Shown here: in pieces, positions 2,246 to 36,360 of the stretch
Numbering within the stretch: position 1 is the stretch's first letter
Layout of the letters: the number at the start of each line of letters is the position of its first letter
Origin: a virus
Taxonomy: Duplodnaviria > Caudoviricetes
Virus record (IMG/VR): IMGVR_UViG_3300021560_000028
Coordinates: 1 to 41,723 of that record
Strand: one strand, 5' to 3'
DNA: 41,723 bases
Translations under genes and position numbers: made by a program
The notes under the pieces: generated by a model
The model's input: only the letters and a program-made list of their open reading frames with translations
Databases searched by the model: none
What the model was told of the DNA's origin: nothing

Positions 2246-2790
2246 ACAAGAAAAACAACACAAGCGAAGGCTCTATCTGGGTCAAGAGCGAGCTATTGCC
2301 GGGCGGCTCGTACAACGTCACTCTGGACTTTACGCCGGACGACTCGATCACCCTTACCGACGAAGAGGCACTCCAGTACTCACTTGCGATACTGGAGGTT
2401 GCCCATATTGCCGAGTACGAGGCATCTATCCTCGCCCAGATGAAGGCAGCAGATATCAGCGAGACAACTGCTGCGCGGTTTATCGCGGACAACTTCCGGC
2501 CATACCGTCACCTACCGGATACCGGCACGCCGCTAGAGCTAATCCCCGGCATTAGTCAGCGGACCAAACAGCCATTCCTAGTAATCATCCTGCGCGGTGT
2601 CGAAGTCGGACAGTGGGACTTCAAGGATGCACGCGAACACGCCCAGGCAATCCTTGACGTCATCTGCGTAGCACGGCTCGACCAGGTTTACTACCACTCC
2701 CTGGCAGATCGCCTAGAGATGGCCGAGCCACAAGCCCGTACCATGGTCTCTCTGATCGGAAAGTTCAGGCCGAATGGAGTCATCTTATGA
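2242..2790 (+). CDS. Hypothetical protein; last sense codon is TTA overlapping the next ATG
   Basis: GTG 2242 overlaps the upstream TGA. Ends ATC TTA TGA. Confidence 0.7.
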   Translation: MNKKNNTSEGSIWVKSELLPGGSYNVTLDFTPDDSITLTDEEALQYSLAILEVAHIAEYEASILAQMKAADISETTAARFIADNFRPYRHLPDTGTPLELIPGISQRTKQPFLVIILRGVEVGQWDFKDAREHAQAILDVICVARLDQVYYHSLADRLEMAEPQARTMVSLIGKFRPNGVIL

Positions 2791-2921
2791 CTAGACGTAC
2801 GTACGACTGGCGCGATATACTAGTCTCGGGTATCATCCTAGCACTACTACTACTGCTATTGGTACTGTCAATAGCTTTGTCCGAACCGCCATATCATATA
2901 TCCGGAGGTGATCTATGGTGA
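2787..2921 (+). CDS. Small single-pass membrane protein (44 aa)
   Basis: MTRRTYDWRDILVSGIILALLLLLLVLSIALSEPPYHISGGDLW*. Fills the gap exactly with overlaps at both ends. Confidence 0.6.
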   Translation: MTRRTYDWRDILVSGIILALLLLLLVLSIALSEPPYHISGGDLW

Positions 2922-3862
2922 AGAACAAGATACGCTACGTATCACTTCACCACTTACACCATTCGACCTTCAGTCACGGTGATGGCCACAAGCTACCAGC
3001 TATCCACGTAGCGCGGGCTGTAGAGCTAGGCTATACCGCGCAAGCCCTTACAGAGCATGGCGGTACGTCTAGTCACTTCCAGTTCGAGCAGGCCGCCCTG
3101 AAGCTAGGGCTGAAGCCGATATTTGGGCTAGAGGCGTACTGCGGGCCGGTAGGCGAAAACCGTAGCCAATGGAAGTATCACCTCACGATCCTCGCGGAGA
3201 ACGCAAATGGATACCGAAACCTCAACCGCCTTGTCACACAGTCTTGGCGAGATCATCACTACCATCCGACAGTTTCTGGACAGAATCTGGTCGACAATCA
3301 CGAGAATCTTGTCGTACTTTCAGGATGCACTGGTAGCATGCTCGCATGCGCTCTTGTCGGAGGCAAGGGGATCGCCGATCCCACGTCTAGAGACGGTTAT
3401 GGATGGGATGACGCACGACGCGTCATCCGCCGTTTTGCCTCTCTATTTGGGGCCAATTACTACCTCGAAGTCCAGCCCTTCTACGAGCTTGAAAAGACCT
3501 GCCGCATCAATCCAGCTTACGAACGTCTCAGCCGGGAGACTGGAGTTCCACTTGTCGCAACGTGTGATGTCCACTACCCCAGACCAGCAGATTCTGAGAT
3601 GCAGGCTATACTCCACGCAGTACACCGAAAGAACCAATCCATAGACGACGCACTACGCGCCTGGAACTATGACGTCCCTATGACGTTCCCCGAGTCCGAC
3701 AAGCAACTCGGCGAACGCCTGATGAAGACCGGCCTATCCCGCGCCGCAGCATGGGAGGCTATCCTCAATACTGAGCGCATAGCCGAGCAATGTACGGTAA
3801 CCCTGCCAAAGGCAGAACGACTTACCTACCCAATCAAAGACTCCGACTGGGAGCCATGGTGA
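2915..3862 (+). CDS. dnaE: DNA polymerase III alpha (DnaE) N-terminal PHP-domain subunit; contains CAC-TTA-CAC candidate bypass site
   Basis: GGAGG SD. Motifs SLHH(LH)HSTFS.GDG, ALTEHG, KPIFGLEAY, HLTILA.N..GYRNL, LSGC, YYLEVQP, VATCDVHY. Confidence 0.9.
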   Translation: MVKNKIRYVSLHHLHHSTFSHGDGHKLPAIHVARAVELGYTAQALTEHGGTSSHFQFEQAALKLGLKPIFGLEAYCGPVGENRSQWKYHLTILAENANGYRNLNRLVTQSWRDHHYHPTVSGQNLVDNHENLVVLSGCTGSMLACALVGGKGIADPTSRDGYGWDDARRVIRRFASLFGANYYLEVQPFYELEKTCRINPAYERLSRETGVPLVATCDVHYPRPADSEMQAILHAVHRKNQSIDDALRAWNYDVPMTFPESDKQLGERLMKTGLSRAAAWEAILNTERIAEQCTVTLPKAERLTYPIKDSDWEPW

Positions 3863-4038
3863 AGCAGGACATCTACATCAGTCATGTCGTCGGCCTCTGT
3901 GCGATATGCGGTTTCTACATCATCGATACCGGCTACAGTGACGAGATGGATCATGAATTTCTTTTCAATGAGCTTTCCCTATACGGCCGGAATGACTGGT
4001 TCTTTAACGCATTCCATGGAAGCTGGGAAATTATATGA
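3856..4038 (+). CDS. Small hypothetical protein (60 aa, CxxC) between the two dnaE halves
   Basis: ATG 3856 overlaps the PHP stop, and its TGA overlaps the dnaE catalytic ATG (ATGA). Confidence 0.55.
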   Translation: MVKQDIYISHVVGLCAICGFYIIDTGYSDEMDHEFLFNELSLYGRNDWFFNAFHGSWEII

Positions 4039-6284
4039 GCGACTCTGATGATCTATTGTGGTACTGGCTTCGACAGGGCTGGAACTATCGCCGAATAGGC
4101 AGGCTACCGCAGGTCGAACAGGACTGGCACGGCGCGCGAATCCGCCGAGAGATGGATATGATCCTCGGCAAAGACCTAGCCGACTTCATGCTATTCACCT
4201 CCGACACGATCCGCTGGGCTAAGGACAATGATGTAGCGATAGGCCCCGGCCGGGGCAGCACCGCCGCGTCCGACGTAGCCTATATGACAAGGATCACCGA
4301 GATCAATCCATGGAAGTATCCGGGTATGATCTTTGAACGATTCCTTGACGTTACCCGACACGACCCGCCCGACATCGACGTCGACTGTTCTGACGAAGAA
4401 CGCTTCAAGGTCTATGACTACATCGCCTACAAGTACGGTGCGGAATGTGTCGGCCACATAGGCAACTTCGTCCGGTACCGTGCCAAGAATAGTCTTGCTG
4501 ACGTTTCGACTGTCTATCGCATACCGCTCTACGCAAAAGAAGCAGTAGCGAATCTAGCCATAGAGAGGTCGGGTGGCGACTCGCGAGCCGACGCTACGCT
4601 CGAAGACACTTTTGAGATGTTCCCGGCTGCGAAGGCAGTCCTTGATGAGTACCCTGACCTCGCAAAAGCAAGTCGCCTAGAGAGCGACGTACGCGGAATG
4701 TCCGTCCATGCTTGCGGCCTAATGGTAGCCAACTCTCCGCTCACCGACGTCTGCGCGGTATACGAGAAGGACGGAGAGCGTGTACTCTCAATCGACAAGT
4801 ATGACGCCGAGTATGTCGGCGTTCTCAAGCTAGACTTCCTGGGCCTATCGACTATGGGGATGATCTCTCGTTGTCTCCGGATGACCGGACTAACTCTGGA
4901 GGATCTATATGCCATACCGGATACTGATCCTAGAGCAATCGAGATATTCCGCTCTGGAGACGTCGTGGGAGTATTTCAGTTTGAAGGTAGAGCTACTCGG
5001 CTTGTCAACCGAGACGTTCATCCAGATCACTTCATGCATATCACGGACATCAATGCGCTATCGCGTCCTGGCCCTTTGTTTTCCGGACAGACCGCAGAGT
5101 ACATCGAAGTACGTCACGGTCGTAAACGAGCTACCCCTCTACACCCCATCGTGGATGAGATCACGAAGGACACCTACGGACAAATGATCTACCAGGAACA
5201 TATCCTCCGCTGTCTCAAAGAGGTAGGGGATCTGTCCTGGACGAACGTCCACCACATCCGGCGCATCATCGCGAAGAAAGCAGGCCAAGCCGCATTCCAG
5301 CAGAACTTCGATGAGTTCGCAGAGGGTGCGAAACGACTCCACAACATCGACCGGGAGATGGCCGAGAAGATCTGGAACCGGCTCGTAACCTCCGGCACTT
5401 ATGCCTTCAATATCGCGCACGCAGTATCCTACTCGATGCTAGCATTCTGGACGGCATGGCTAAAGGCAAACTATCCAGTCGAGTTCTACGCGGCGAGCCT
5501 GGCAAAAGCCACAGTAGCCGACACTCAGTTCCGTCTTATGCGTGACGCCCTAGCTCATAGCATAGACGTTAAGCCGCCATCACTACAGCTATCCCGCGCC
5601 ACCTGGCAAGCAGTGCCGAATGTCGGGCTAGTCGCCGGATGGCGTCAGATGCCAAAGGTCGGCCCGGCAATCGCAGAACGCATAGAGGCATTCGGTGGTC
5701 ACTATGGATTCGATGACTGGATTGAACTCAAGGCGATTCCCGGCCTAGGCGACAAGACTATCGCCCGTATGGAGGAGTGGACGCTAGCGAAAGACCCATT
5801 CGGGCTGTACCGGACGGAGAAGCGCCTATCGTCGGTCAGGCGATTCCTCAGGGGTCCGGGCAAGGGACTCGCTCCCCTCCCGACGCATAGCGGGGATCAG
5901 CTCGCCGCGATGACAGTAGACCAACATCATACCCACAAGATCTGGCGATTCGGTAAGCAAGTCATCTATATGGGGATGGTCAGAAAGGTCGAGTACAAAG
6001 ACATAGTCGAAGACGAACGGTCCCGTACCGGCAAGGAAGTGGAGGAGATCCTCAAGACCATCAAGCGCCCTGACCTCATCAAACGAGCTACCCTACACTG
6101 CTACGATGTAGGCGACGAAGAGGTATATGCTAGGGTCAACCGGTTCCGGTTCCCGACTATCCAGGGCAAGCTAGGGACAATCAAGATCAATCATGATGTA
6201 GTCATCATATCCGGCAACCGGATCTCCGGATTCGGCACGCCTATCACGGTAGATGAGATATGGGTTCTCGATCCTGATAATTGA
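4035..6284 (+). CDS. dnaE: DNA polymerase III alpha (DnaE) catalytic subunit (palm/fingers/HhH/OB)
   Basis: GPGRGS, FERFL, PDIDVD, KLDFLGL, GVFQFE, RPGP, IYQE, YAFNIAHA motifs. Confidence 0.95.
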   Translation: MSDSDDLLWYWLRQGWNYRRIGRLPQVEQDWHGARIRREMDMILGKDLADFMLFTSDTIRWAKDNDVAIGPGRGSTAASDVAYMTRITEINPWKYPGMIFERFLDVTRHDPPDIDVDCSDEERFKVYDYIAYKYGAECVGHIGNFVRYRAKNSLADVSTVYRIPLYAKEAVANLAIERSGGDSRADATLEDTFEMFPAAKAVLDEYPDLAKASRLESDVRGMSVHACGLMVANSPLTDVCAVYEKDGERVLSIDKYDAEYVGVLKLDFLGLSTMGMISRCLRMTGLTLEDLYAIPDTDPRAIEIFRSGDVVGVFQFEGRATRLVNRDVHPDHFMHITDINALSRPGPLFSGQTAEYIEVRHGRKRATPLHPIVDEITKDTYGQMIYQEHILRCLKEVGDLSWTNVHHIRRIIAKKAGQAAFQQNFDEFAEGAKRLHNIDREMAEKIWNRLVTSGTYAFNIAHAVSYSMLAFWTAWLKANYPVEFYAASLAKATVADTQFRLMRDALAHSIDVKPPSLQLSRATWQAVPNVGLVAGWRQMPKVGPAIAERIEAFGGHYGFDDWIELKAIPGLGDKTIARMEEWTLAKDPFGLYRTEKRLSSVRRFLRGPGKGLAPLPTHSGDQLAAMTVDQHHTHKIWRFGKQVIYMGMVRKVEYKDIVEDERSRTGKEVEEILKTIKRPDLIKRATLHCYDVGDEEVYARVNRFRFPTIQGKLGTIKINHDVVIISGNRISGFGTPITVDEIWVLDPDN

Positions 6285-6295
6285 TGGAGGTAACC

Positions 6296-6526
6296 ATGAC
6301 ACCGCAAGAGAATGTAGATCTCAAGATAGTCGTCAGGAATGCTGATGACATGGATGAATGGAACTTCAGAAAACATATGTCCGTTAGGCATAGCGAATCT
6401 CTCGCCGGACAGTACACTCTACCACCATTCGCCAGCGACTACGTTGAAGAGTGCTATCGCACATTCCACGACACCATACACCGGCTAAGCCTGTACGGCG
6501 AAGTTGATCACGAACATGGGAAGTGA
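6296..6526 (+). CDS. Hypothetical protein (His-rich)
   Basis: GGAGG SD 5 nt before ATG 6296, in operon position. Confidence 0.6.
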   Translation: MTPQENVDLKIVVRNADDMDEWNFRKHMSVRHSESLAGQYTLPPFASDYVEECYRTFHDTIHRLSLYGEVDHEHGK

Positions 6527-6527
6527 T

Positions 6528-7139
6528 ATGACAACCTCAGTCACTATCGGGTACGTCCACAACGATCACGTCCACGCCGGGTTTATGCACTCGCTGGTGA
6601 ACCTCATCCGGTACATGAGTATCGACACCCTTGACTACTGGTCGAGCGCTAACATATCGACCGCGCGGAACAAACTAGTCGAGCAGTTCCTAGAGTCTGG
6701 TAACAAGTGGCTATATATGGCCGATACCGATACCGTCTTCAACCGGAATACGATCGAGCGCCTACTCAAGCGTAACGAGGCGATCATAGGCGGACTCGTT
6801 CATATCAATGACCTCCCGAAGTACCCGTCGATGTTCCGGCGTGAGCCTGATGACGAGAACGGGACGCCGGCATACCGGGCCATCACCGAGTATGAACAAG
6901 GCGAGGTTGTTGACGTGGACGCGACCGGCGCGGGCTGCCTCCTAGTCCACCGGCAGGTGTTCCTAGACATCCAGGAGAAGCTGCCCAATAAGGCCGCCCA
7001 GTGGTTCCAGGAGATCCCGATGGGCGAATATCTTGCCGGTGAGGATGTCACCTTCTGTATTCGAGCGATCAGCCTAGGATACAATATCTGCGTCGACACC
7101 TCGGTCAACATCGGCCACCTCAAGACTCACATCATCTAG
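6528..7139 (+). CDS. GT-A fold (family 2-like) glycosyltransferase
   Basis: ARNKLV, WLYMADTD (DxD), ATGAGCLLVHR, GEDVTFC, IGH motifs. Start may be 6516 instead. Confidence 0.8.
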   Translation: MTTSVTIGYVHNDHVHAGFMHSLVNLIRYMSIDTLDYWSSANISTARNKLVEQFLESGNKWLYMADTDTVFNRNTIERLLKRNEAIIGGLVHINDLPKYPSMFRREPDDENGTPAYRAITEYEQGEVVDVDATGAGCLLVHRQVFLDIQEKLPNKAAQWFQEIPMGEYLAGEDVTFCIRAISLGYNICVDTSVNIGHLKTHII

Positions 7140-7349
7140 GAGTCGACTACGGTCGACTATGTCTAAACCATACCCCTCGGCCCTACCGGCTCCGAACCGG
7201 CCCGAAAGACAGACTCCTTGCCGGCCCGGAGCCGAACGGAGCGGGCCTATCTCCCCCTCCCGGGACTCTCGGGTACGGCTAGGCTCGATAGGCTCTTAGA
7301 ATCGATCCTAGAGCCGCGTAGCTATACGTCGCTCTACGTAACCGGCCGA

Positions 7350-7637
7350 CTACGTACCAGTAAGGCCGGTATAGGCCTGGTTCTCTTGCGGGTTCGCTAG
7401 CAGGTAGTCGGTACTGATAGATGTAGCGGCAGTAGGGACACCTGCACTAGACACTATTGGCTCGATGACGTTGCTAGTAGTGCCAAGTCCGAAGGCAATA
7501 ATCATCTGAGTCATGCCAGGATTCGGCGCAGTTGATCCCCAGATGACATACCAGCCACTACCGCTTATGAGCGCCGAGTACGTCGCAGGCACCGCAGGCT
7601 TGGCCAATGGTGTTACTTCTGGCGATCTCTCTGTCAT
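7350..7637 (-). CDS. Hypothetical protein
   Basis: ATGA overlap with the methyltransferase stop; last gene of the late operon. Confidence 0.6.
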   Translation of the reverse strand: MTERSPEVTPLAKPAVPATYSALISGSGWYVIWGSTAPNPGMTQMIIAFGLGTTSNVIEPIVSSAGVPTAATSISTDYLLANPQENQAYTGLTGT

Positions 7638-8239
7638 GGGCCCGGCTCCTTCACTAGCGGATCATGCGGTTCTTGCCGCCTGATCATCTGGTCGTATACG
7701 CCGGGGATACGCGGTTGCGGCTTCACCCATACGCCCCGAAATGGCGCCCGGTAGTAACACGGCCAGGCATACGGCTTATGCGCCGTGTAGGCCATCATCA
7801 ATACCGCGCCGGGACGCATCGCGCGCTGAACCGAAGACTCCCAGGCTGACTCGAACTCGTCATCCTTGAACGGTCGCGCGGTATACACGATATCATACTC
7901 GGCCCACGGCGGCGAGTCCGTCCGCAGGTCCATGTACCGGGCATCGACCTCTATGGCGAGTGCCTTGGCTAGATAGTCTTCAGAGATCTCGTAGCCTACC
8001 GCCGTCAGGCCATGATACTTCTCGGCCAGGTATAGCTTTGTGCCGATACCGCATCCGGCTTCACAGAACGAGATCTCGTGCTGTCCTGGGAACATGTGGA
8101 TAGCGACAGTAAGCATCCTGTCGAACTCACGCAGTTCAAGAGGACTCCACCGCCACATCTCAGGGTCGGGGTCCGTCGTCTCCCGTTCCTTGTATAGCTG
8201 TTCCAGTTCCAGGTCCCACAGTTGTTGCTGGCTTAGCAC
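7634..8239 (-). CDS. Class I SAM-dependent methyltransferase
   Basis: Motif I FCEAGCGIG, then VGYEIS, DIVY, MRPGA. GTG 8239 is preceded by GGAGGGAGG. Confidence 0.8.
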   Translation of the reverse strand: MLSQQQLWDLELEQLYKERETTDPDPEMWRWSPLELREFDRMLTVAIHMFPGQHEISFCEAGCGIGTKLYLAEKYHGLTAVGYEISEDYLAKALAIEVDARYMDLRTDSPPWAEYDIVYTARPFKDDEFESAWESSVQRAMRPGAVLMMAYTAHKPYAWPCYYRAPFRGVWVKPQPRIPGVYDQMIRRQEPHDPLVKEPGP

Positions 8240-8453
8240 GACGCCTCCCTCCGGTGAATGCGCGCGGACCGATAATCTCAGCACCGAACGCAATGAATGC
8301 TGCGATGATGACACAGTCAAGGATTGATTCCTTGCTGAGACTCTTGACGACATCTGTGGCGACTACGTTGATGATCAGCGCGGCTATGAACACCGACAGT
8401 ATTCGCCACAGATGCCAGACGAGTGCTCGGGCTAGGTTACCGGCGCGGTCCAT
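8160..8453 (-). CDS. Two-TM membrane protein, candidate holin
   Basis: Two hydrophobic segments and a basic C-tail, immediately downstream of the endolysin. Confidence 0.55.
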   Translation of the reverse strand: MDRAGNLARALVWHLWRILSVFIAALIINVVATDVVKSLSKESILDCVIIAAFIAFGAEIIGPRAFTGGRRRAKPATTVGPGTGTAIQGTGDDGPRP

Positions 8454-9226
8454 GCCGCATTCCACGTTTCGGGACCGACCATGCCGTCATAGCTCAGTCC
8501 CTTCTCTGACTGGAACTGACGGCAGACGTTCTCGGACTGCGGCCCGTAATGACAGTCTACACTGATCGTCCATCCGCGCGACGACATCTGGGCCTGCCAT
8601 ACCTGAACGTCCGAGCAGTTGTAGTTGTGGCCGTTGGCCGGGCCGAAGTAGTCGACATGAAGCGTCGGAACCGAACCGCCTCCACCGCCTCCACCTCCCG
8701 ACGGTGGTGGAGTTCCGCCCCGAGCCAGATCCAGGACGTAGTCCATGGGGAATCCGTTCCCGCAGTCGGAGTGGTTTCCGCCCCAGGTTCCGAGGTCTCG
8801 GTGCTGACAGACTCCACGACCACTCCCCTGTGCCTGCGAAGCGGTGAGCTTCGTGATCGGAATGTTGAACTTGGCTGCTTCTTCCCTGACCCAGTCGGCC
8901 GCGTTCAGGAGCATGTTGTTGTGCGAGTTCCGCCAGGTCGAGTCCGACCAGGACGCGAACCCGCACAGCTCGGCGGCGACCGACACCGGGTTAGCGTTCC
9001 CCTGCGTCCACGCCTTGTTCCCGCGCGAGACGTACTCGCCGCACTTGCCGCGCTTGTCATCGATGCCGACGTGAGAAGAGACTCCTGAGCTGCTGCTGGC
9101 GAAGTAGTTCCCCAGGGACTCGTACGTCGTTGCCCCTTCGGCCGTGTGGAGTACGATCAGGCGTACCGAGGAACCGCCCCGGCTGCTGTAGTTGGGGCTA
9201 GGAATCCAAACCCTTGTGAGTGTCAT
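8432..9226 (-). CDS. Endolysin: N-acetylmuramoyl-L-alanine amidase (Amidase_2) plus Gly linker and peptidoglycan-binding domain
   Basis: IVLHTAEG, SSHVGID, AELCG, HRDL...HSDCG; C-terminal FQSEKGLSYDGMVGPETW. Confidence 0.9.
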   Translation of the reverse strand: MTLTRVWIPSPNYSSRGGSSVRLIVLHTAEGATTYESLGNYFASSSSGVSSHVGIDDKRGKCGEYVSRGNKAWTQGNANPVSVAAELCGFASWSDSTWRNSHNNMLLNAADWVREEAAKFNIPITKLTASQAQGSGRGVCQHRDLGTWGGNHSDCGNGFPMDYVLDLARGGTPPPSGGGGGGGGSVPTLHVDYFGPANGHNYNCSDVQVWQAQMSSRGWTISVDCHYGPQSENVCRQFQSEKGLSYDGMVGPETWNAAWTAPVT

Positions 9227-9409
9227 CTACTGCTCCTCCGCACCTCTGGTAAGCTGAGCCAGATCTGACTCTGGCCTTTCGTCGTCTCCTGGGTTCGCCC
9301 AGAACTCGTGCCCCTCTTCGGCAGGCTCGACTACCGGAGTGACCTGCCGGAGATGCGGCGCTAGTGGATCGCGCGGTGCCTCATCCTCGCGCTTCTCCTC
9401 ATAATCCAT
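9227..9409 (-). CDS. Small acidic hypothetical protein
   Basis: Purine-rich SD; abuts the endolysin start. Confidence 0.55.
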   Translation of the reverse strand: MDYEEKREDEAPRDPLAPHLRQVTPVVEPAEEGHEFWANPGDDERPESDLAQLTRGAEEQ

Positions 9410-19600: not shown

Positions 19601-19948
19601 GTGAGCCGCTTTTGTCGGATCTATCAGTTTTGAATCATAGATCTCCTTGATCCTGACGCGTATACCATCAAGTCTCTGATCGAGTTGCGTCGAGTCGGCG
19701 TCAAGCTGCGCTTTCGGTAGTGAATCAAGCGCAGCCTTTATACGCCTCTTGAATTCCTTGTCGAACGCACCTCCTGCTGAATCTCCTGACTTACCCATCT
19801 TGTCGGTGATTGCCTTGCCCATCTCCGTTCCGGCTTCATCGCCTATAGCCCGAGACGGCTCGACAATCTGCTGCCGCATCTTCTCATCCCAGCCTCTAGC
19901 GTCCGGCACGACGCCGACTGAAACTGATCCTACGACGATATCAGTCAT
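16613..19948 (-). CDS. Tape measure protein with C-terminal lytic transglycosylase (SLT) domain
   Basis: Long Ala/Gly-rich helical protein after the tail chaperones; QTESGGDP...GLMQ...DPLANIAAALNY. Confidence 0.92.
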   Translation of the reverse strand: MTDIVVGSVSVGVVPDARGWDEKMRQQIVEPSRAIGDEAGTEMGKAITDKMGKSGDSAGGAFDKEFKRRIKAALDSLPKAQLDADSTQLDQRLDGIRVRIKEIYDSKLIDPTKAAHEIDRIMLDLKRLKLEAGKDMPLNISYDSQKALDILYKLRGIGPQGATKGGLLSTISKDVSGLENAANSLSGATSAGTGIFGSLSSLFDRFTGFFGGGGGGGGAGGVAGEVASGGESAGMGLSGLLTSPAAITAMVAAGIAVLPFILQAAGSIIIGTMGTGILGLGIIGAQMGGKLAKPEAHFGADFSSFLKQSGAPLVPVLTQILNFAGSLMKTLTPTFVQAMKDIAPAFQQFADAFIKALMQPGVQKAIIDVANAFGLMLQSMTTVLASNMASFAKAIDDLANTIAKNPQVFADMINFLSKAVVLAIDIVNWGAKIAGYIEKHPLLEAILKWTLIPGYGVVKTGQAAQSRGGAGGAIPLSDQWFNNLGSSLWHGLMKATSTPPAGAPAKISTPFVGPVTGARPVLTHTFIGPSVPSNVAASGIPGGGVLHDILHGAMSFLTSGNIVQPTTPGQPGVPAGFVGPVAAKAPILGPAVPYPGTNVKPGISVPGELNKWLALGPAAGHIANIGVMIGHGFETAYNVAVHGMSLLSGKIAYGWNRYVKPFFTKTIPQNFHNWFFDAIHWLEKTGEDLITGLWNGVTTIWNTDIVPFFTKTIPQNFTNWFWDAIHWLEKTGSDIITGMWNGIKTAWTTVSNFFTKTIPQNFSNWFSNAVTWLTGAGKDIVNGLLAGVSDFFKGASSVNQWFHDNVYMPILTSIKSVFGISSPAKKMHPIGANLITGIIHGMMGEGKKIGHFIAQIFGSWPHAILSYVSKGLLSEKGLPKAAMNAIGSALGWGQKALKGGLGAAANILGGFWNFITGKSAGKVGAGVEQWRNTVLKALAITHLPSAYTDLVLRQMQTESGGDPNIVNTWDSNARAGNPSRGLMQTTGTTFAAFHVPGTSWDIYDPLANIAAALNYAVHTRGVGIGPGRGQLGGGSGYDLGGWLPPGVTMAVNRTGKPEAIFTQDQLDRMGGTQYHAHFDGLTGAVIEGHVQTAFKLMEMRNGALQRQGRRS
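17600..17975 (-). repeat. Three ~40-aa tandem repeats in the tape measure
   Basis: FFTKTIPQNFxNWFxxAxxWLxxxGxDxxxG occurs three times, about 120 nt apart. Boundaries approximate. Confidence 0.8.
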
Positions 19949-20764
19949 CGGGCACCTCCAGGAAGCTAGGGCTGTTCATCAGTTTGCGTATCTCGTTGTC
20001 ACTCATGTCCCTCATGCGCGGGTCGAGCGCCCGGACATCACTCATGCGCAAGATCTTTCGACCCCTACGCTTCGTACCACCAGGACGACGAATAGGCTCA
20101 GGCCGCCGTATGTTCCCAGACTTTGAGTTTACTGAAGCATACATCCAGCTCTGGTGCCTAATCTCATCAATCAGGGAAGCTAGGAGTGTCTCAACAGTAC
20201 TCCAGGGAGCCTGTGCTGGATCACCAGCCGACGCATCAAGCTGCTCTTCCGGCGTCCGATTCCGAATCGCAGTATTCAACGCACCCTCCGGCGGAAGAAA
20301 TTCGACTAGCACTAGCAGCTTACGCCACGAAAGTTCCGCGCCGAGACTAGCCAGAGCTATACCATAATAGCGCTGTAGATCTGCCTCTACCTCCTCCGGG
20401 AATTCTGTGGTGATCCAGAGCGCTTTCTGGATTTTCCCATGTTCATCCGAGACTGCCTACCGCACTCGTTGAACACTGCCTCGACCTGGTAGTTACGCAG
20501 GTCGGCTGCGACCCATGTCTGGAACTCCGCATCGTCATCGATGACCTCGCGAGCCCACGTGTCCCAGTCACCGGCCGCCGCCGCACGCATCGCGGTAGAT
20601 GACCAGCTCTTGGCATGGGACACGTGAACGATCTTGCCGTCAAGCTTGACCGTTGTCGGTTCGCCGACGACCTCCTTGCGCAGGATCTCGTCCATGAGGT
20701 CCAGGTCGATGTCGACGGAAACTTCTTCTGGGGTTACCGGTCCCAGTCCCAAGTCCTCACTCAT
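19941..20764 (-). CDS. Tail assembly chaperone, long (gpGT-like) form via -1 frameshift at GGGAAAA (20438-20432)
   Basis: ATG GGA AAA TCC. The -1 frame reads IQKALWITTEFPEEVEADLQRYYG... open into the 19941-20312 ORF. Confidence 0.88.
20387..20764 (-). CDS. Tail assembly chaperone, short (gpG-like) form
   Basis: Lies between the major tail and tape measure genes and ends just past the slippery site. Confidence 0.85.
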   Translation of the reverse strand: MSEDLGLGPVTPEEVSVDIDLDLMDEILRKEVVGEPTTVKLDGKIVHVSHAKSWSSTAMRAAAAGDWDTWAREVIDDDAEFQTWVAADLRNYQVEAVFNECGRQSRMNMGKSRKRSGSPQNSRRR

Positions 20765-22230: not shown

Positions 22231-22595
22231 ACCGTCACGCCCGTAATCCGAGTCACATTGATCCGGATGGGAGATTCCCGCCCGGAGAATGGTGACGTCC
22301 AGTAGCTCGGCTCACCCTGGATCTCGTAAGTGTCCCCGTTGTAGATTACCGCGTCGAGCGCGGTAACAACAATACCAGGCGGGAAGAATATGGTATCTGT
22401 CTGAGAAACCTGGTCAGTGAAGATAAGATTCTCGGAACTGCCGGCAGGGACGAACACGCACTGCGGAACCTGGATCAACACATCGTTGTATACGTCATTG
22501 CCGTACTCATCCAGCGTACCGCTCAATACCCGCCGCACCAGTGTCATGGACACGGCGAAGTTCTTCATCACCACCCACTGCCAGTCGATAGGCAT
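22227..22595 (-). CDS. Head-to-tail stopper
   Basis: DEYGN, D...YNGDTYEIQGEP motifs. GGAGGAGG SD before ATG 22595. Confidence 0.75.
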   Translation of the reverse strand: MPIDWQWVVMKNFAVSMTLVRRVLSGTLDEYGNDVYNDVLIQVPQCVFVPAGSSENLIFTDQVSQTDTIFFPPGIVVTALDAVIYNGDTYEIQGEPSYWTSPFSGRESPIRINVTRITGVTV

Positions 22596-22705
22596 AACTT
22601 CACCTCCTCCGCAGGCGCGGAATCAGAATCAGGCAATACGACCTCCGTCGTGAGCGGGTATCTAACCCCGCCCACGACAACCACGCCGGAGATCGTCACT
22701 GTCAC
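22568..22705 (-). CDS. Tiny protein paralogous to part of the upstream gene; TTA at codon 37 overlaps the stopper ATG
   Basis: GTGA overlap at 22705. VTVTISGVVVVGGVRYPLTTEVVLP aligns with QTVSITGTVVVGGVSQDVSTSITLP. Confidence 0.5.
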   Translation of the reverse strand: MTVTISGVVVVGGVRYPLTTEVVLPDSDSAPAEEVKLCLSTGSGW

Positions 22706-29279: not shown

Positions 29280-29282
29280 AAC

Positions 29283-29570: not shown

Positions 29571-29571
29571 G

Positions 29572-30033
29572 TCACACCTGGCAGATGAACCCGACGCCTG
29601 CCGCGCCGGTGCCGGCGGCGGCTTGTAGCGAGTCCCCGATTGCCGGGGTACGTGTGGACGAGAGCAGGAATGCTGCGATCGTGTGGGCCGCAGTCCCGGA
29701 CACCGCGTCGCACGCGATGCCCCAGACGCACGTACCCGGCGCGGCCGTGAATGGCCCCCAGGTAATCTGCGCCGAGTTCCAGAGCTGTGACGGGGACGCC
29801 GCCGATGCCGCCGTGGGGTTGAAGTTCTGCCGCGCGTAGCCGGATGCCGTCGGGTACTCGTTGATCGTTGCGCCGGCCATCGAGACCTCGGTAGATGCGA
29901 GCGCGCCAACCGCCGTGGTCGAGAGCGCTAGGTAGGTGTTCGCGACCGCAGGCGACTGCGCCTTCAGGAACACCGCATTGAGAGCCTGCTGCTCCGCGTA
30001 CTGGAACATCTGTCCTTGAGATAGGTTAGGCAT
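29572..30033 (-). CDS. Virion structural protein (fibre-associated, YLAL...GYARQ...N...I.W type)
   Basis: ATG 30033 with AGGAG SD; motif common in actinophage minor structural proteins. Confidence 0.7.
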   Translation of the reverse strand: MPNLSQGQMFQYAEQQALNAVFLKAQSPAVANTYLALSTTAVGALASTEVSMAGATINEYPTASGYARQNFNPTAASAASPSQLWNSAQITWGPFTAAPGTCVWGIACDAVSGTAAHTIAAFLLSSTRTPAIGDSLQAAAGTGAAGVGFICQV

Positions 30034-30043
30034 CCTACTTCTC

Positions 30044-30301
30044 CTAAGCTGGTAGGAATTGGTTGTCGAATAGAATCGGATCGATCGTTGTGATACGACC
30101 CAGCCCCGTGGAGTCTGTCCACTCGATGATTGGCCATCCTGAGTCGGCATCGAACTCGATGAACTCCACCTCGGTGCCATCGTGAAGATCCAGATTGTGC
30201 ATCTCGTCAGTAAGCGCTGAGCCTTTAGCCTGGCGCCCATAACCGTACACGTCCTGGTTGTGATAAATGAACTTATCACCCATGACCGGCTTCTCGCCCA
30301 T
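30044..30301 (-). CDS. Hypothetical protein
   Basis: TGATG overlap with the upstream gene. Confidence 0.6.
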   Translation of the reverse strand: MGEKPVMGDKFIYHNQDVYGYGRQAKGSALTDEMHNLDLHDGTEVEFIEFDADSGWPIIEWTDSTGLGRITTIDPILFDNQFLPA

Positions 30302-30591
30302 CACTTCTTGCCCTTCTTGGTCCAGGTATCGGGGATGTCCTTGCCCCACCCCTTCGCCTTGGCCACCCTCTTGATGTAGCGCCGGACCTTCTCGTGCTCG
30401 GCCGGGGTATTGGGCCTAGCACGTCCAACCGCCTTGATGGCCGATGCCAGGGAGTTCGGCCCCGTCCGTGCCTGGATCGGGAACCTAGGCGAGTTGGACT
30501 TGTTGGTTTGCGACGGCGGCATTGCCTGCCCCTTGGCCTGTAGGCGTTGCCTGAGCTTCTGTCCCGCTACCGCCGTTCCCGCTGCTGCCAT
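30301..30591 (-). CDS. Basic head-associated protein (DUF6582-like RFPI...AIKAVGRA)
   Basis: RFPI..., AIKAVGRA, VRRYIKR motifs. Confidence 0.6.
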   Translation of the reverse strand: MAAAGTAVAGQKLRQRLQAKGQAMPPSQTNKSNSPRFPIQARTGPNSLASAIKAVGRARPNTPAEHEKVRRYIKRVAKAKGWGKDIPDTWTKKGKK

Positions 30592-31321
30592 TTCTACCAC
30601 TCCAGTACTTTTCCCAGGCCGCTACTGCGTCCTTGCCACTCTTTCCTGCCGTCTCTCGCGACCATTCAGAAGCAAGAGCAAGATTAGCCGAATGCTGGCC
30701 CTGAAATACCGCGCGAGCCAGGCACTGGCAATTATCGTGCGCATGGAATACAATCGTCCCTGCCTTATGTACACCACCGCTAGCAGCAAGCCCAGAACAA
30801 TAGCTACAAGTCCTAGGCTCGACAATACGTTCCCAACCCAATGCGCCGTTGTCATTCGCGACTGCATTTGTTACCGTATCCCGCCCACCATTCAGCACTA
30901 CGCGAATGCTGTTGCCTATAAGATAACGCATAGCCATCTTAGATGCGATGGCCGGTTCGTAACCATTCCCAACGAAGCTGAGGAATTTCTGTAGCCCCGT
31001 ATTCCGAGTTAGTACCGAGAGGTAATCAGGGTTTAGGTACGCTCCTGGCACAGACGTGCCATAATACCCGGCAACTGAACGCGATAGGCCGTAGTACTGC
31101 GCAGCATCCGCAGCAGACATCCCGTGATTCAGGTCTACGATGCCCTGTATGATTGGTTCGAGCGTCTTCCATGTAGTGGCGAAGTTATTAGGATCAACAA
31201 TAGAAGCCCACATACCAGCAATCGATCGCGACACTCCTTGCGCAATCATATTCTGGTTGTTCCTGTATCGCACAAACAGAACACCGCCTGTTTGCGCCGA
31301 CGTACTAGGAAGCCCGTTCAC
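30485..31321 (-). CDS. MuF-like minor capsid / head morphogenesis protein
   Basis: GGRDT, WERIV..TCSYC, HAHDNCQC; GTGA overlap with the portal stop. Confidence 0.78.
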   Translation of the reverse strand: MNGLPSTSAQTGGVLFVRYRNNQNMIAQGVSRSIAGMWASIVDPNNFATTWKTLEPIIQGIVDLNHGMSAADAAQYYGLSRSVAGYYGTSVPGAYLNPDYLSVLTRNTGLQKFLSFVGNGYEPAIASKMAMRYLIGNSIRVVLNGGRDTVTNAVANDNGALGWERIVEPRTCSYCSGLAASGGVHKAGTIVFHAHDNCQCLARAVFQGQHSANLALASEWSRETAGKSGKDAVAAWEKYWSGRNGSSGNGGSGTEAQATPTGQGAGNAAVANQQVQLA

Positions 31322-32886
31322 GGTCCAGCCCCAATAGCAGGCGGCGCACCAGGAACAGCGCCGGGAGTTGGACCAGGCGGGAGCTGTCCGCCCGGAGGAA
31401 TGGGAGCGCCAGGAGGAGCACCAGGAGGCATAGCACCGGCACCAGCCGCAGCTGCCTGCTGTTGCGCTATCATCTGTTGTACGATCTGCTGAGCTTGCTC
31501 CCTCTGGTATGCCAGCTGCCACGACGCGACGTCATCTGACGTAGCTCCAGGCACTCGCGACCACAACTCCTCAGCAGGCACGCCAAGCATCTGCGTCAGC
31601 TTGCCAAGCGCATCAATCGTCGCCGCGAAGGACCGTGCTGACGTGTCGCGCCACAGAATTGTGCCGAACAGGTCATTCCATCCGGCAGTGTTGCCCTGAG
31701 CTAGACACGTAAGTCTGAAGACGTTTCGCCAGGGATCTGTCTGTCCCGCTTGCAGTTCTTCAATCTTCCGGTCGAGTCCGTCGCGAGCAGCTGCGAGCGC
31801 TTCTGCTGACATATTTGCGACCTGTCCCAAAAGATGATACGGCGGAATCTGTGAGACAGTTGACATATGCCGTATTCCATCTTCTCGCACGAGAGAGTAT
31901 GGCTGGAGTGCGGTTTCACCAAATTCTCCAAACTTCGTTGTCGGATCGTCCGACGCCCATACGCGGTCAACGCCCGGCCGGAACGGCATAGTTTCCCGGC
32001 CATCCTCATCGACCGGCGACATACCGGAGACATACCGCTGCCTGAACGCAGCGAACTGCGTCGAGATCATCAGGTTGAACGTGTCGAAGTTGATCTGGTC
32101 CTGGATCGGCATAAGCGGCTCGATCTCGCCTATACAATCCTCTTCGGCATCCAGGTCAACTTCATACAGGAACCGCACTACCGGGCATATACCCATCTCA
32201 TGCGCCGAGATTACCTGCTGCCCGTTGAGCAGAACATCACCTGCTTCCGCAAGATGGATGTTGGCCTGAGACGGATCGACAGCGGCATCGCCGGTTAGTA
32301 TGTACCGGTTCGCTTCATCATAAACGTACACCAACATGCGTGCTGTGCCATTAGGCATGTTGACGACGTTCACCTCGATTGCGAATTGCGGCCACTCATC
32401 ATCTATATCGTCAGCATAGAATGCCGTCATCCTACGCGGGCTAACCGGCCGGATAACCGGCACGTTAGCAGGCTGCTCTTCGTCCGAGGTAAGCTGTCCA
32501 GGCAACACAACGGTGTACGCAGAACCGTACTTGATGACCGCGCGATGAACGCCGTGCTGCCGAGACACCATCCGGTTCGCGCGGAACGCATCCCATTCCG
32601 GAGTAGGCTTCTGCGGAGATGCCATCTCATTAGCCGTCGTGCCGGTCGGCTTGTATCCGTCCACATGGAGGTTCTCTGAGATAACAGAGATGATGAGAGG
32701 CAAAAAGTTCCGCCGTGCCTTCTTGGCTATCCACCGGTACTCAGCATTAACACCGCGCGGGATGTAGGGTGGGTCTTGCCGGCCACGTACGTAGTTCCCG
32801 ATCCGGCGCAGCCTATTCTGTTCAGCCTCTCGCGACGCAAGAGCCTTTTGCGTCGTCTCCACTACCTGATTCGTCCCGATGATCAT
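31318..32886 (-). CDS. Portal protein (SPP1 gp6-like)
   Basis: YVRG, NFLPLI, CPVVRF, GEIEPL..QD.IN, AFRQR, NMSAEAL motifs; follows TerL. Confidence 0.92.
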   Translation of the reverse strand: MIIGTNQVVETTQKALASREAEQNRLRRIGNYVRGRQDPPYIPRGVNAEYRWIAKKARRNFLPLIISVISENLHVDGYKPTGTTANEMASPQKPTPEWDAFRANRMVSRQHGVHRAVIKYGSAYTVVLPGQLTSDEEQPANVPVIRPVSPRRMTAFYADDIDDEWPQFAIEVNVVNMPNGTARMLVYVYDEANRYILTGDAAVDPSQANIHLAEAGDVLLNGQQVISAHEMGICPVVRFLYEVDLDAEEDCIGEIEPLMPIQDQINFDTFNLMISTQFAAFRQRYVSGMSPVDEDGRETMPFRPGVDRVWASDDPTTKFGEFGETALQPYSLVREDGIRHMSTVSQIPPYHLLGQVANMSAEALAAARDGLDRKIEELQAGQTDPWRNVFRLTCLAQGNTAGWNDLFGTILWRDTSARSFAATIDALGKLTQMLGVPAEELWSRVPGATSDDVASWQLAYQREQAQQIVQQMIAQQQAAAAGAGAMPPGAPPGAPIPPGGQLPPGPTPGAVPGAPPAIGAGP

Positions 32887-34551
32887 GAAAAACTCCATAC
32901 TCTGCGCTTGCCGCTCTTGGCTGCCATAGCCCGGCGTTCCTTGTACGCTTTAGATCCGAGTACAAGCCGACGAGCATGCCTCGCGCCAATCATACAAACA
33001 CAGGCGTCGATTTTCTTTGGCGACTTAGGTGCTTCCTTACCAATACTTATGCCCCAGCGGTTCGGCCGACGCCGAGCATTAACAACGTGCCGTCCTAGCG
33101 CCGAGTCTCCATCATGCCAGAATACTGGATCACCCGGAGACTCGATTTCGCTAAGCACCATCTCGCATGCCTGCGTAAACTCCGCAGTATGCGAGCGCAT
33201 ATCCCATGCTACAGGCTGTGGATCACGCCCAGAAGGGACAGCCCATATATCAAGGCCCTCTTCAAACCACTCACGCCACGTAATCTTCGTTGACTCTTCC
33301 CACTCATTGACGTCCGCGAAGAATGCGCAAACATTCCACTTCTCTTGTGCCGACCGTATAGCAAAGTGGACTTCATCAACCGGTACATTACGCGTACCCA
33401 GCGGCTCCCAAACACCAAGAGTGAAAACGAAACCAGTTTCCACATGACATCCAACCAGTGCAGTAGCGTCATCAGTCCTCGATCCATCGAAGAACATAGT
33501 AATATCGTCGCCGTCATTGATCCTGAATTCTGGATCTGACAGTCGTGCCCACTTCTGCTGCGTGGTCCACGCATCCTCGGCCGACTCCGGCCAGTTTAGG
33601 TAGAATCGCTTGGACACATCTAGCGGCGTACGCGGCGAGAGGATACGATTCTCAACGATATCATCAGTATCAGCCCAGAAAGCATCGCCATACGCGAATT
33701 CAACCGCCTTGCGTATGGATGATACGTCATCGAAATCAACATCAGGAGGGGCCATTCGCGAATCATACAGGATCTTACCCTTCCCTTTGAGCTTGCCCTC
33801 TTCTTGCGACACCCACGCATCGAATGTAGTCTCGGCTACCGTCCCCGCGCCCGGCTCCCAGGCATTTGACGTCTCGATAATCCGCGAGCCGGACTTACCA
33901 ACATTACGGTCCATGACTTCGGCAAGCGCTATTCCTCCGTTGGTGGCAGTGAACGACTCGGTCTGATCAAGTATCGCAAAGGTGACAAGAGCACCCTCTT
34001 CGGTAGTTGGCGAACTCGTGATGACCATGAGTTGTCCTCCGCCTGGCACATGGAATATTGTCTTGCCAGCTTCGACATCATAGTCTCGCAGGATTCGCGA
34101 TTTCTTGGGCAGTAGCGCCCGCACCATCCGCATTGTGTTGACGTTGGCCTGGTCATGTGACGTTGCGCCAATCTGTACGAGCGGCATCGACACCGCTTTC
34201 CCAACGACGCCGCCCGGCGCGTCGGAGTCCCATCGCCAGAAGCGGACAGGCGCGAGTAGCTCGATCATCGCCAACACCGCGGCAAACGGAGACTTCCCGG
34301 CACCTTTTGGGTACCGGCGCACTCCGTGATAGAACATCCAGCGCCCCTCGGGCGTTAGCGCATACCACCAAAGTATGAATCGCACTTGCGATTCCGTGAA
34401 CTCCCACCGGTTCCCGGCGTCCGGCCCGTCTGGCTGCTTGAGGTAAAAGGTACTTGGATGCCCAGTGAATCGCTTCCCACCCAAGCGTAAGCTCAGGCAA
34501 GCCTTCAGGAAGCGTAACCAGTCTGTCACGTGGCGCTACCAATGTACTCAT
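32883..34551 (-). CDS. terL: Terminase large subunit; needs recoding (7-nt bypass or +1 shift) at TAC CTT TTA C CTC, 34452-34440
   Basis: 5' frame MSTLVAPRDRL..LTLGWEAIHWASKYL joins the 3' frame KQPDG...PKGAGKS (Walker A), FDGS..DD, KIDA. GAGGTG SD before ATG 34551. Confidence 0.9.
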
Positions 34552-34573
34552 TCAATCACCACCTCTCGCAAAC

Positions 34574-35398
34574 CTACTTGGTAGCTACATACGTAGCGAG
34601 TTGCTTCATCACGGCCGCACTCGGCTTAGCGACCTGCGCCCTGCCGCCCTTGGCCGGATGAGCAGTCAGGCCCTTCGGCGGCTTTGGTGCTGCGATACGC
34701 CGCTGTGCCGCAACCTTGTGAGCTGCCTTCCGTACTGCGGTCTTCTTCCTTGCCGGTGCCTTCTTCTTGGCCTTAGCCTTAGCCTTGGCCGCCGCCTTCT
34801 TGTGGCTGTGCAGGTATATCCCGAGCCTAGCCAGCCCCATGCCTAGCCGGGCAGCCCCGCCGAGCGCACGCCCCGCCCCAAGCAGGCCGCGTCCCAGTCC
34901 GCCGCGACGGCGCTGTTGCCTACGCTGCTTGTCCCGCTTCTTGCGTTCCTCCTCGCGCTTCTTGTCGCTGGCCGCGCGTTCCTCACGCCTTGCCTTGTCG
35001 CGCTCAGCGAAGTCCTTGTTGCGTTGCTCCCGGTCAGCCGCCCTGGACGCATCCCGCGCGGCGTCACGCCGCCTGGTCTCCTCGGTGATGCTCTGATGTA
35101 GGGCTTCCTTCCGGGCCTGTAGCTGCTCCTGCCTAGCGACACCATACTGTGCCATCGCCTTGTGGAGTTCTTCTCGCGAGATCCCAGCTGACCTAGCTTC
35201 GCGGCCCGCAGTCTCGACTGCCATCCTGTCCTGTAGTATCTGATGACGCCGAAGAGCAGTCTTCTCATCGCGCGTAATCGTGTCCGCCGCGCCGCGTTCG
35301 ATTTTGCGAATGGCATTGCGGACGTGCTTGTGGTGTTCGCCGCCAAAGATCCAGCGCCCGTGGAACCCCCGGATCTCAGCCGGGTTGAAGTCAACCAT
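34574..35398 (-). CDS. Highly basic Arg/Lys/Ala-rich protein with N-terminal FNPxExR..GRW motif
   Basis: Lies between terS and terL; coiled-coil middle and histone-like KA-rich tail. Confidence 0.65.
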   Translation of the reverse strand: MVDFNPAEIRGFHGRWIFGGEHHKHVRNAIRKIERGAADTITRDEKTALRRHQILQDRMAVETAGREARSAGISREELHKAMAQYGVARQEQLQARKEALHQSITEETRRRDAARDASRAADREQRNKDFAERDKARREERAASDKKREEERKKRDKQRRQQRRRGGLGRGLLGAGRALGGAARLGMGLARLGIYLHSHKKAAAKAKAKAKKKAPARKKTAVRKAAHKVAAQRRIAAPKPPKGLTAHPAKGGRAQVAKPSAAVMKQLATYVATK

Positions 35399-35846
35399 CG
35401 TCCGTCCCCGTCCTCACTATGCCGAGACGTCCGTGCCACTTGATCACGGCATCGTCAGCCGCTTCCTCATCCTGATCAGTGACATCCTGATCAGTGAGTT
35501 CGATTCTGTTCTTCTTGCGGTCGATGACCGTCACGCCGAGCCGAGCCGACAGCCGCTCGAATACCGGCAGTAGGTTCGCCCGGTACGTACGCAGGAAGAT
35601 GTCATAGATCTGCGCCGCCATGACGGCCGTAGCCCAGTCGGAAGCCTCATAGAACTCCGACTGGCCGCTAAGCGCTAGCGCCCGGAACCAGGACTGTGCC
35701 TGCGGATGCCAGTTCGGATTCGCCTCTGGGATCGGGATGTCCTTGCGCTTAGACTCCCCGGTCGACACAGCCAGGAAGCGCGGGTCATCACCGCCACCAG
35801 TACCCGCGCCCGTACGATTCTCAGGCTTCTTCTTTGGAGCAGGCAT
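35391..35846 (-). CDS. terS: Terminase small subunit
   Basis: PEANPNWHP.A..WF..L..SGQ..FYEASDWA...LG.T..DR...RIEL actinophage TerS pattern. Confidence 0.85.
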   Translation of the reverse strand: MPAPKKKPENRTGAGTGGGDDPRFLAVSTGESKRKDIPIPEANPNWHPQAQSWFRALALSGQSEFYEASDWATAVMAAQIYDIFLRTYRANLLPVFERLSARLGVTVIDRKKNRIELTDQDVTDQDEEAADDAVIKWHGRLGIVRTGTDDG

Positions 35847-36031
35847 AACTTACCCTTCGGCATAACTGGCCCGTCTCCCGACTTCCAGTCCTTCGGCACC
35901 ACGCCCGCGCCATGGCAGATCTTACACACGTGCGCGTCGACCGAGCCGGTGCCATTGCACGGCGGACATATCTTCTCGTCGGGGCCAGGTTCCCGATGCT
36001 TCTGGATCGGGACAAATGGGGCAGGAGGCAT
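35675..36031 (-). CDS. Small DnaJ-type zinc-finger protein (2x CxxCxGxG); probably effectively ends at TTA 35848-35846 (61 aa)
   Basis: CPPCNGTG...CKICHGAG. Sequence after the TTA is an off-frame read of terS. Confidence 0.65.
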   Translation of the reverse strand: MPPAPFVPIQKHREPGPDEKICPPCNGTGSVDAHVCKICHGAGVVPKDWKSGDGPVMPKGKLCLLQRRSLRIVRARVLVAVMTRASWLCRPGSLSARTSRSQRRIRTGIRRHSPGSGR

Positions 36032-36360
36032 AACAACATCTCACCTTCAGTATGTACATCACGAGCACCACGAATGACACCCGGATGTGGGTCTTGCGGC
36101 CTCTTGCGCAACGTGTGTCGTACGTTGCTTTGTAGATTTGACCGCCGACGATGGTGTGACAAGCAAAGACCCCGCAGCATCTCCAGGCGATGGTCATTGG
36201 CATCGCCCATGTGGTCGCACTCAGTCGCATCCTGTCCGCAAGGCCCCTCTTCATCATGGAGTAGGCCCCATTGGCATACGCGATCCCGCGCCAGAACAAT
36301 CATGCGTAGACGCCCCCACCCTGGAGGCAGGGGCGTCTTGCGCCAGCTACCGGCGCTCAT
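35821..36360 (-). CDS. Packaging-associated HNH endonuclease; probably effectively ends at TTA 36033-36031 (109 aa)
   Basis: LP.GW..LR..VL.RD..CQ...ATECDH...DH....LRGLC..HH...RP...HPG. First gene of the late operon. Confidence 0.8.
   Translation of the reverse strand: MSAGSWRKTPLPPGWGRLRMIVLARDRVCQWGLLHDEEGPCGQDATECDHMGDANDHRLEMLRGLCLSHHRRRSNLQSNVRHTLRKRPQDPHPGVIRGARDVHTEGEMLLCLLPHLSRSRSIGNLAPTRRYVRRAMAPARSTRTCVRSAMARAWCRRTGSRETGQLCRRVSYACSKEEA

Follow-up and report, generated by a model that had tools for sequence, protein, structure and literature searches.

UUA at gene ends and at predicted translational hop sites in an uncultured soil phage: a candidate leaky stop codon

TTA codons in the window

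The window is the whole virus record IMGVR_UViG_3300021560_000028 (41,723 nucleotides (nt); 55.6% guanine plus cytosine (GC)), from an uncultured soil phage whose likely hosts are given as soil actinomycetes. The leucine codon TTA is almost missing from its genes. There are seven in-frame TTAs among 13,714 codons (57 gene models), against an expectation of 35 (from the A/G ratio of two-codon boxes) to 96 (from TTG x CTA/CTG); P(<=6 | 34.7) = 2e-9. Other A-ending codons are used freely (CTA 207, ATA 183, GTA 228), TTG occurs 87 times, and the +1 frame of the same genes contains 192 TTAs. Both the scarcity of TTA in nearly all called genes and the free use of the other codons had been claimed in an earlier reading of the sequence (the original prediction), and both are borne out. 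The six TTAs that it listed, at 2785 and 2954 (+) and at 22597, 34446, 35848 and 36033 (-), are correct in position and frame, but they are not the only ones: a seventh, at 35865 (-), lies inside the run-on of the HNH gene, downstream of TTA 36033.

Two of the TTAs head short inserts, in dnaE and terL, and were said to lie between matched codons. Both are predicted hop sites. However, dnaE is split in the window, and the insert at 2954 lies in the 315-amino-acid (aa) PHP open reading frame (ORF), not in the 749-aa catalytic ORF (Table 1). A 60-aa ORF of no known family (3856-4038, +) stands between the halves, which are fused in 28 more distant relatives. The dnaE insert (6 nt) keeps the frame; its take-off His codon is identical to the landing His codon, and homologues without the insert read SLHHHSTF. 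The terL insert (7 nt) breaks the frame: the Leu take-off codon is CTT, the Leu landing codon is CTC, and read-through leads to a 132-aa dead end. At both sites the landing codon can be read by the take-off tRNA, and the gap is led by UUA in a conserved junction.

Four other TTAs overlap the next ATG, as originally described, but only three of them replace a stop. The TTA at 2785 is the last sense codon ahead of a real TGA and does not stand in for a stop. This TTA-TGA pair is shared with the relative G001 (labels of this kind are our own), and the 44-aa ORF that follows has no homologues. The junction at 22597 is also common to G001, and L014 has TAA near the same place.

The extra bases are not assembly errors, because gap-free contigs carry them and an insert recurs in independent phage records with changed flanking codons. 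Contigs from three of four runs cover the terL insert and TTAs 35848 and 36033 gap-free. The dnaE site is covered by contigs of two of the four runs, both possibly source samples, and the dnaE insert is found again in two other records with altered flanks. At 22597 the support is the TTA shared with G001. One variant in run X3 has 93 different bases over 2858-2962, a span that includes the end of the 44-aa ORF and the start of dnaE.

Gene names were assigned via PHROGs and Pfam. Five labels are presumptive and based on motifs: RuvC-like, small terminase, Tad, ArfB and PE-like.

Table 1. Coordinates of the features of the window
Feature	Position	Strand	Remarks
6-nt insert, TTA + His codon	2954..2959	+	In HxH metal-binding motif of DnaE PHP ORF; predicted hop
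DnaE PHP-domain ORF	2915..3862	+	phrog_405/7513; 315 aa read through, 313 aa after predicted hop
DnaE catalytic ORF, separate (749 aa)	4035..6284	+	No in-frame TTA
7-nt TTA-led insert in terL, after codon 35	34440..34446	-	Predicted hop
terL 5' part, 35 codons	34447..34551	-
terL main part, 518 aa	32883..34439	-	phrog_9; no own start at homologous position
HNH gene	36034-36360	-	Ends on TTA 36031..36033, overlapping next ATG; run-on 69 codons
Seventh TTA, in HNH run-on	35863..35865	-
61-aa zinc-finger gene	35849-36031	-	PF00684-like; TTA 35846..35848 at end overlaps next ATG; run-on 56 codons
151-aa gene, putative small terminase	35391..35846	-	PHROG 226; TGA end in window
34-aa ORF	22598-22699	-	TTA 22595..22597 at end overlaps ATG of head-closure gene; run-on 8 codons
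182-aa gene	2242-2790	+	TTA 2785 directly ahead of TGA (2785..2790); overlaps ATG of 44-aa ORF
Endolysin, amidase + peptidoglycan-binding domain	8432..9226	-	Sole host clue
Homing-endonuclease-like ORF, before thyX	235-666	+	phrog_655/314
Tail assembly chaperone pair, two frames	20387-20764 and 19941-20312	-
Secreted-looking 224-aa protein	40936-41610	+	8 environmental homologues, no family

Gene ends and inserts across the phage clade

The window is part of a tailed phage of roughly 65 kb, because the near-identical L105 (99.995% identity across 18,838 nt) belongs to a contig of 64,838 nt. The closest terminase of a cultured phage is only 50% identical to that of the window; TerL identity is 65-88% in 58 of 64 viral loci. 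Within this core clade TTA is not an ordinary sense codon and is as rare as the stop codons. Among 221,847 codons in conserved columns, drawn from 81 overlapping sequences, TTA occurs six times, TGA twice and TAG once, and the next-rarest sense codon 657 times. Five of the six TTAs head inserts and the sixth is an antisense artefact; frameshifting insert sites fall outside this count. In 11 whole records there are five TTAs in 92,662 conserved codons, every one at an insert. UUA is thus absent from ordinary conserved coding positions in the core clade. The closer of 145 further loci again have no sense TTA; more distant ones have 1-3, and L313 (43% GC) has 20.

Where a frame runs on past a junction, TT precedes the overlapping ATG in 21 of 29 cases, and in 17 of 20 when the run-on is at least five codons long. 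The figures are 1 of 97 for NNA-TGA junctions and 11 of 403 for unlinked starts, where the upstream frame had ended earlier, which rules out TTATG as a mere start context. In most relatives the HNH gene has a terminal TTA that overlaps the following ATG, and in four it has TGA there; TT is retained in 12 deduplicated copies of this junction, with run-ons of 4-243 codons. TTA also stands at the homologous stop of the putative small terminase in L025, L058 and L014, without ATG overlap. Since a codon-model gene caller overlooked small genes, homology tests were used instead. TTA lies at most six codons from the homologue end in 29 of 1,192 gene ends (19 reference families) and at most one codon away in 18. 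It is found there in 21 of 108 genes that overshoot by at least 9 codons (28 of the 108 are fused DnaE) versus 4 of 953 that end on time. TTA is enriched 9-fold at homologue ends; the next codon reaches 2.7-fold. UUA thus stands where homologues stop, and stop-like behaviour of the junction TTAs in the phage clade is supported.

Inserts of 2-9 nt are found in 17 gene copies belonging to four families (dnaE-PHP, terL and two nucleases); 13 are led by TTA and four by TGA or TAG. To be retained, a candidate had to be backed by several records and to be identical at 6-8 of the 8 residues preceding the site. At the HxH motif of dnaE-PHP the insert is 6 nt long in the window, G001 (CAT/CAT) and G006 (CAC/CAC), 2 nt in L248 and L275, 3 nt in L255, and 7 nt and led by TAG in L287. 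The TEHG motif of the same gene has inserts of 9 nt (G007), 7 nt (L270), 6 nt (TGA-led, L223) and 4 nt (TAG-led, L237). In terL, the position of the window's insert is occupied in G002/L003 by one of 6 nt led by TGA; of 55 close terL loci read, a single one besides the window has an insert. The PD-(D/E)XK nuclease has 5 nt in G005 and G007, and the RuvC-like gene has 6 nt in G007 and 7 nt in L054. Every insert lies within the first 45 codons, at a conserved motif. With shared designs counted once, the landing codon is in the decoding box of the take-off codon in 10 of 14 designs, against 0.49 expected. Six of these ten land on a synonymous, non-identical codon and so go beyond simple duplication.

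Among nine insert sites examined, a Shine-Dalgarno-like word is present at one, and predicted folds range from -7 to -13 kcal/mol (no control); there is no strong common Shine-Dalgarno word or hairpin. Insert-bearing phages are scattered over a PHP tree of 79 sequences, with the true-stop inserts in outer branches. TTA-less frameshifts in L031, L126 and the chimeric L120 were dropped as probable errors. A TGA in L260:14414 (-, endolysin-like) and a TAG in G001:8919 (+, protease) are substitutions without inserts and likely errors.

In L143 (~6390-6450) and L146 (~800-860) the 5' end of dnaE is duplicated, with a dead copy about 400-500 nt upstream of the gene. The dead copy in L146 has a TTA insert and the live dnaE has none; a Cys-rich ORF follows, which would fit insertion of a mobile nuclease gene at the motif.

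Searches of the window and of 33 relatives' loci found no tRNA gene. A scan of 127 proteins revealed no release factor, and the 120 accessory proteins scanned from G004 and G009, a subset of what these two encode, include no integrase. The tail assembly chaperone pair is probably the usual programmed frameshift, with no TTA involved. Long inverted repeats occur in non-coding gaps (36780-36895, 39150-39320, 39880-39975 and 7140-7345; no shuffle control), one of them flanking an AT run; an origin, promoters or terminators are possible. The relatives G009 (L098:16482-17681, L099:13829-14569) and G004 (L081:15883-16575) have SIS/HAD, TylF and short-chain dehydrogenase genes of sugar-modifying or methyltransferase type.

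Candidate host, its tRNA-Leu(UAA) and release factor 2

The endolysin is the only clue to the host. Its best named homologue is in a Streptosporangiaceae metagenome-assembled genome (65%). Matches were found in 17 of 401 Actinomycetes, of which the best full-length one and several others are Streptosporangiaceae, and in 11 of 331 genomes of that family, with G642 at 67%. Searches with the secreted protein at 40936 and with the G004 dehydrogenase gave nothing, and terL gave only five loci in genome contigs (46-53%), with no host indication. By homology of this gene, a soil Streptosporangiaceae is slightly favoured as host. A Streptomyces host with a bldA-timed sensor is not supported, as this clue points elsewhere.

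The genus of G642 has an unusual tRNA-Leu(UAA). U33 is nearly universal in tRNA; the orthologue in 11 of 12 genomes of this genus has the loop C-C-U-A-A-A-A, with C33 in its place. Across the family, C33 is present at 18 of 26 orthologous tRNA loci (4 of the 30 loci examined are not orthologues). Loss of the tRNA was considered and rejected: strict patterns (50/401 and 151/331 hits) missed the tRNA, for example in G341, and the C33 form, and a relaxed pattern matches 309 of 331 family genomes. The strict tally over 401 and the endolysin tally include G049 and G042, and the relaxed tally includes G526; no conclusion depends on any one of these three. The cognate tRNA is thus kept, with C33. ARAGORN calls it tRNA-Phe(AAA) (loci L465-L475), and it is probably mis-annotated in databases. 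The only U33 match in the genus is probably foreign; the 3-kb contig that carries it also has a PE-like gene.

A short RF-1-domain protein of ArfB size, which we take to be ArfB, is present in 10 of the 12 genus genomes. Release factor 2 (RF2) is altered in its codon-binding region. All nine genus proteins read have SKY in place of SPF, and GGAD at the helix tip; five of five controls have SPF, and RF1 retains PVT in the genus. One additional SPF RF2, in G691, is unlike the genus RF2 in sequence. SPF is the proposed tripeptide anticodon of RF2 (PMC5776981). RF2 was typed in 79 of 80 genomes, which were chosen by tRNA type and are mutually related (no independent-pairs test): SPF 28, SPY 10, SAY 2, SKY 34, SQY 4 and SRY 1. 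The 28 SPF genomes comprise 15 with a U33 tRNA seen, 11 of C33 type and two unread. SPF is present in all 15 genomes in which a U33 tRNA was seen and which have no C33-only set. Non-SPF RF2 is found in C33-type genomes in 50 of 51 cases, where C33 is for many taken from the absence of a U33 match. The SPY proteins are named Actinoallomurus and the SKY proteins 'Streptosporangiaceae bacterium'.

In about 0.9 Mb of genus DNA there are 38 TTAs in 1,109 called genes, seven of them at a homologue end, versus 0 of 14 in 685 control genes; these counts cover a few percent of each genome. UUA thus stands weakly where homologues stop in the candidate host. Conserved internal TTAs occur in a Tad-like pilus cluster of the host genus (L434:1806-2858, 3011-3631 (G542), G615, G720) and are possibly regulatory. 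UUA in these bacteria is at most a leaky, dual codon, because internal TTAs are conserved, conserved columns show no clear shortage of TTA relative to controls, and some genomes have a second, U33 tRNA.

Interpretation and comparison with known systems

The data are best fitted by an alternative that the original prediction had mentioned, in which UUA is effectively nonsense in the host. We consider it probable that UUA is a leaky stop exploited by the phage, with TTA gone from ordinary positions and kept at gene ends and insert heads. The elements of this reading come from sequence: the TTA distribution, the TGA/TAG interchange, the matched codons, the C33 tRNA and the altered RF2 (SKY, SQY, SRY, SPY, SAY). 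The C33 tRNA would decode UUA slowly and leave it open. Ribosomes would mostly terminate there, and the altered RF2 or a rescue factor would free the chain; release by RF2 itself is rated just short of an even chance, and otherwise rescue factors would end the stall. RF2 mutants able to terminate at a sense codon have been described (PMC7530605). At TTA-ATG the ribosome would re-initiate as at TGA-ATG, the overlaps coupling translation.

At the inserts, hops are very probable by analogy with Streptomyces phage phiHau3, in which UAA can substitute for UUA and mass spectrometry showed bypass in E. coli (PMC10732093). In a fraction of ribosomes the P-site tRNA would slide 2-9 nt to a codon read by the same tRNA and translation would resume. 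The inserts are dispensable, because most sister phages are without them. Our best guess is that they attenuate low-copy enzymes, lowering the dose of the PHP proofreading domain, terminase and nucleases. Alternatively, they may give immunity to mobile nucleases.

More tentatively, a large soil Streptosporangiaceae lineage may be midway in a change from sense to stop, in which the tRNA lost U33, RF2 went from SPF through SPY to SKY, and UUA came to terminate. The code would be dual, Leu and stop, and the phages would have adopted a fourth stop and repeated stop-hops as attenuators.

Several points weigh against a leaky UUA stop. On the phage side, 4 of the 14 hop designs land with a match at two of three bases. 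The TGA of G002 differs from TTA by one base, and where G001 has one TAG its sister L106 has TTG, a single case that is possibly an error. One gene pair, the HNH junction, supplies 12 of the 21 TT junctions, and in-frame TTA often follows closely on genuine stops (126 of 1,192 gene ends). Distant relatives with ordinary sense TTA (L260/L233 and L264/L265/L199) branch among the TTA-hop phages. The host link is one gene; the endolysin contig of G642 has 73% GC and shares little else with the clade, and a search of 12 genomes found no spacer match, the hits being low-complexity or intragenic. In host genes the contrast of 7 to 0 is weak (p = 0.049) and biased, as genus genes have more close homologues. 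UUA is not absent from conserved host positions: two internal sites, which align with Leu and Val, are shared across species, and TTA in conserved columns (5/164,448, one an artefact) shows no clear deficit relative to controls (4/72,364). A second, U33 tRNA-Leu(UAA) is present in G699 (SKY) and G594 (SQY), two of five genomes checked; G509 has SAY with T33 tRNAs; and 11 C33 genomes retain SPF. The organellar change strikes the RF2 serine, which is kept here.

The last of these points also bear on a hungry codon without a release factor, the strongest rival. On this account the C33 tRNA reads UUA so slowly that ribosomes stall. The outcome would be a hop, re-initiation at the overlapping AUG, or rescue by ArfB or transfer-messenger RNA (tmRNA), and the RF2 change would be unrelated or compensatory. 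The 11 C33 genomes with SPF place C33 before the RF2 change, the serine of SPF is kept, an ArfB-sized protein is widespread in the genus, and the internal TTAs of the host need Leu. However, TTA ends genes that have neither ATG overlap nor hop (the putative small terminase in L025, L058 and L014), RF2 changes are almost confined to C33 genomes, and tmRNA rescue tags products for decay. We regard this account as unlikely, though clearly the best of the rivals.

Much less likely is the model originally put first, in which a bldA-like, growth-phase-regulated tRNA-Leu(UAA) is sensed and hops yield functional enzymes only when it is scarce. Such control has been proposed and partly tested for phiHau3 (PMC10732093), one host gene cluster has regulatory-looking conserved internal TTAs, and some hosts have a second U33 tRNA. 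True TGA or TAG, which cannot sense a tRNA, nevertheless takes the hop position of TTA in four relatives and heads 4 of the 17 inserts. The inserts are patchy among sister phages, being absent from most relatives, and the junction run-ons vary in length as widely as given above. There is no Streptomyces link, the G004/G009 proteins scanned include no integrase, and bldA control is described as confined to Streptomycineae (PMC4255298). A regulated component of UUA reading may remain, because host genes hold a few conserved internal TTAs.

It is very improbable that the inserts are resolved otherwise, by Leu read-through of the in-frame ones (3, 6 and 9 nt) and by +1/-1 frameshifting or transcription slippage elsewhere, with extra residues tolerated. 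Four designs have no matched landing codon, a -1 shift adding one Phe would also account for the 2-nt design, and the nine sites examined have no strong common signal. The inserts, however, fall in invariant motifs whose length is constant in other relatives, six designs land on synonymous, non-identical codons, and the phiHau3 bypass was seen by mass spectrometry (PMC10732093). Chance or artefact (GC pressure making TTA rare, TTATG as start context, inserts as errors or dead genes) is largely refuted by the junction test, contig support, codon counts and recurrence with changed flanks in independent records, even though every high-GC actinomycete sampled has few TTAs and the records are metagenomic.

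If the host reading is true, the genetic code of an abundant group of soil bacteria has been altered in part, and its intermediate stages can be seen (U33 with SPF, C33 with SPF, C33 with SPY in cultured Actinoallomurus, and C33 with SKY). Models of codon reassignment would become testable in bacteria, and a natural RF2 variant would be available for code engineering. Whatever the host, the phages supply many natural candidates for short bypasses and stop-hops. They also show that gene callers split essential genes of this clade or place their ends wrongly.

Within the open literature (subscription journals lay outside the scope), no bacterial UUA stop, C33 tRNA-Leu or SKY RF2 was found described. 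Sense-to-stop UUA was found described for organelles only and UUA hops for three terminase genes only. The latter are the terminase genes of phiHau3 and two prophages, where UUA triggers bypassing (PMC10732093). As in the window, phiHau3 has a short non-coding terL gap led by UUA, a stop can replace UUA, and junction residues are conserved. In contrast, the gaps here are 2-9 nt, four gene families are involved, natural TGA/TAG versions exist, and there is no clear Shine-Dalgarno word or common hairpin; UUA is also found at gene ends, and the host is probably not Streptomyces. Under bldA control in Streptomyces, 5-6 nt separate a UUA in the upstream ORF of adpA from the start (PMC10732093, PMC4255298). 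Rare UUA beside a start codon and conserved internal UUA in selected host genes are shared features; unlike that system, UUA here overlaps AUG and replaces a stop, and the tRNA is type I with C33, not bldA.

UUA has changed from Leu to stop in labyrinthulean mitochondria and peDinoflagellate plastids, where the codon-binding region of RF2 is altered and its serine changed (PMC12574857). UUA only where stops are expected and an altered RF2 are common to both. Here, unlike in the organelles, the system is bacterial and phage-borne, the cognate tRNA gene is kept (C33), the SPF serine is kept while P and F have changed, and UUA ends a small share of genes and still lies inside a few host genes. 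Bypassing in Magnusiomyces mitochondria and T4 gene 60 has take-off and landing codons around a non-coding insert (PMC5009743). The insert is led by an unread or stop codon, as here, but the gaps here are much shorter and have no evident hairpin. Hopping over an in-frame stop is known from synthetic E. coli constructs, for which a 2016 review states that 'no occurrences are known' in nature (PMC5009743). The matched codons around a stop and the 6-nt gap are shared with G002 terL and L223 dnaE, which are candidate natural cases.

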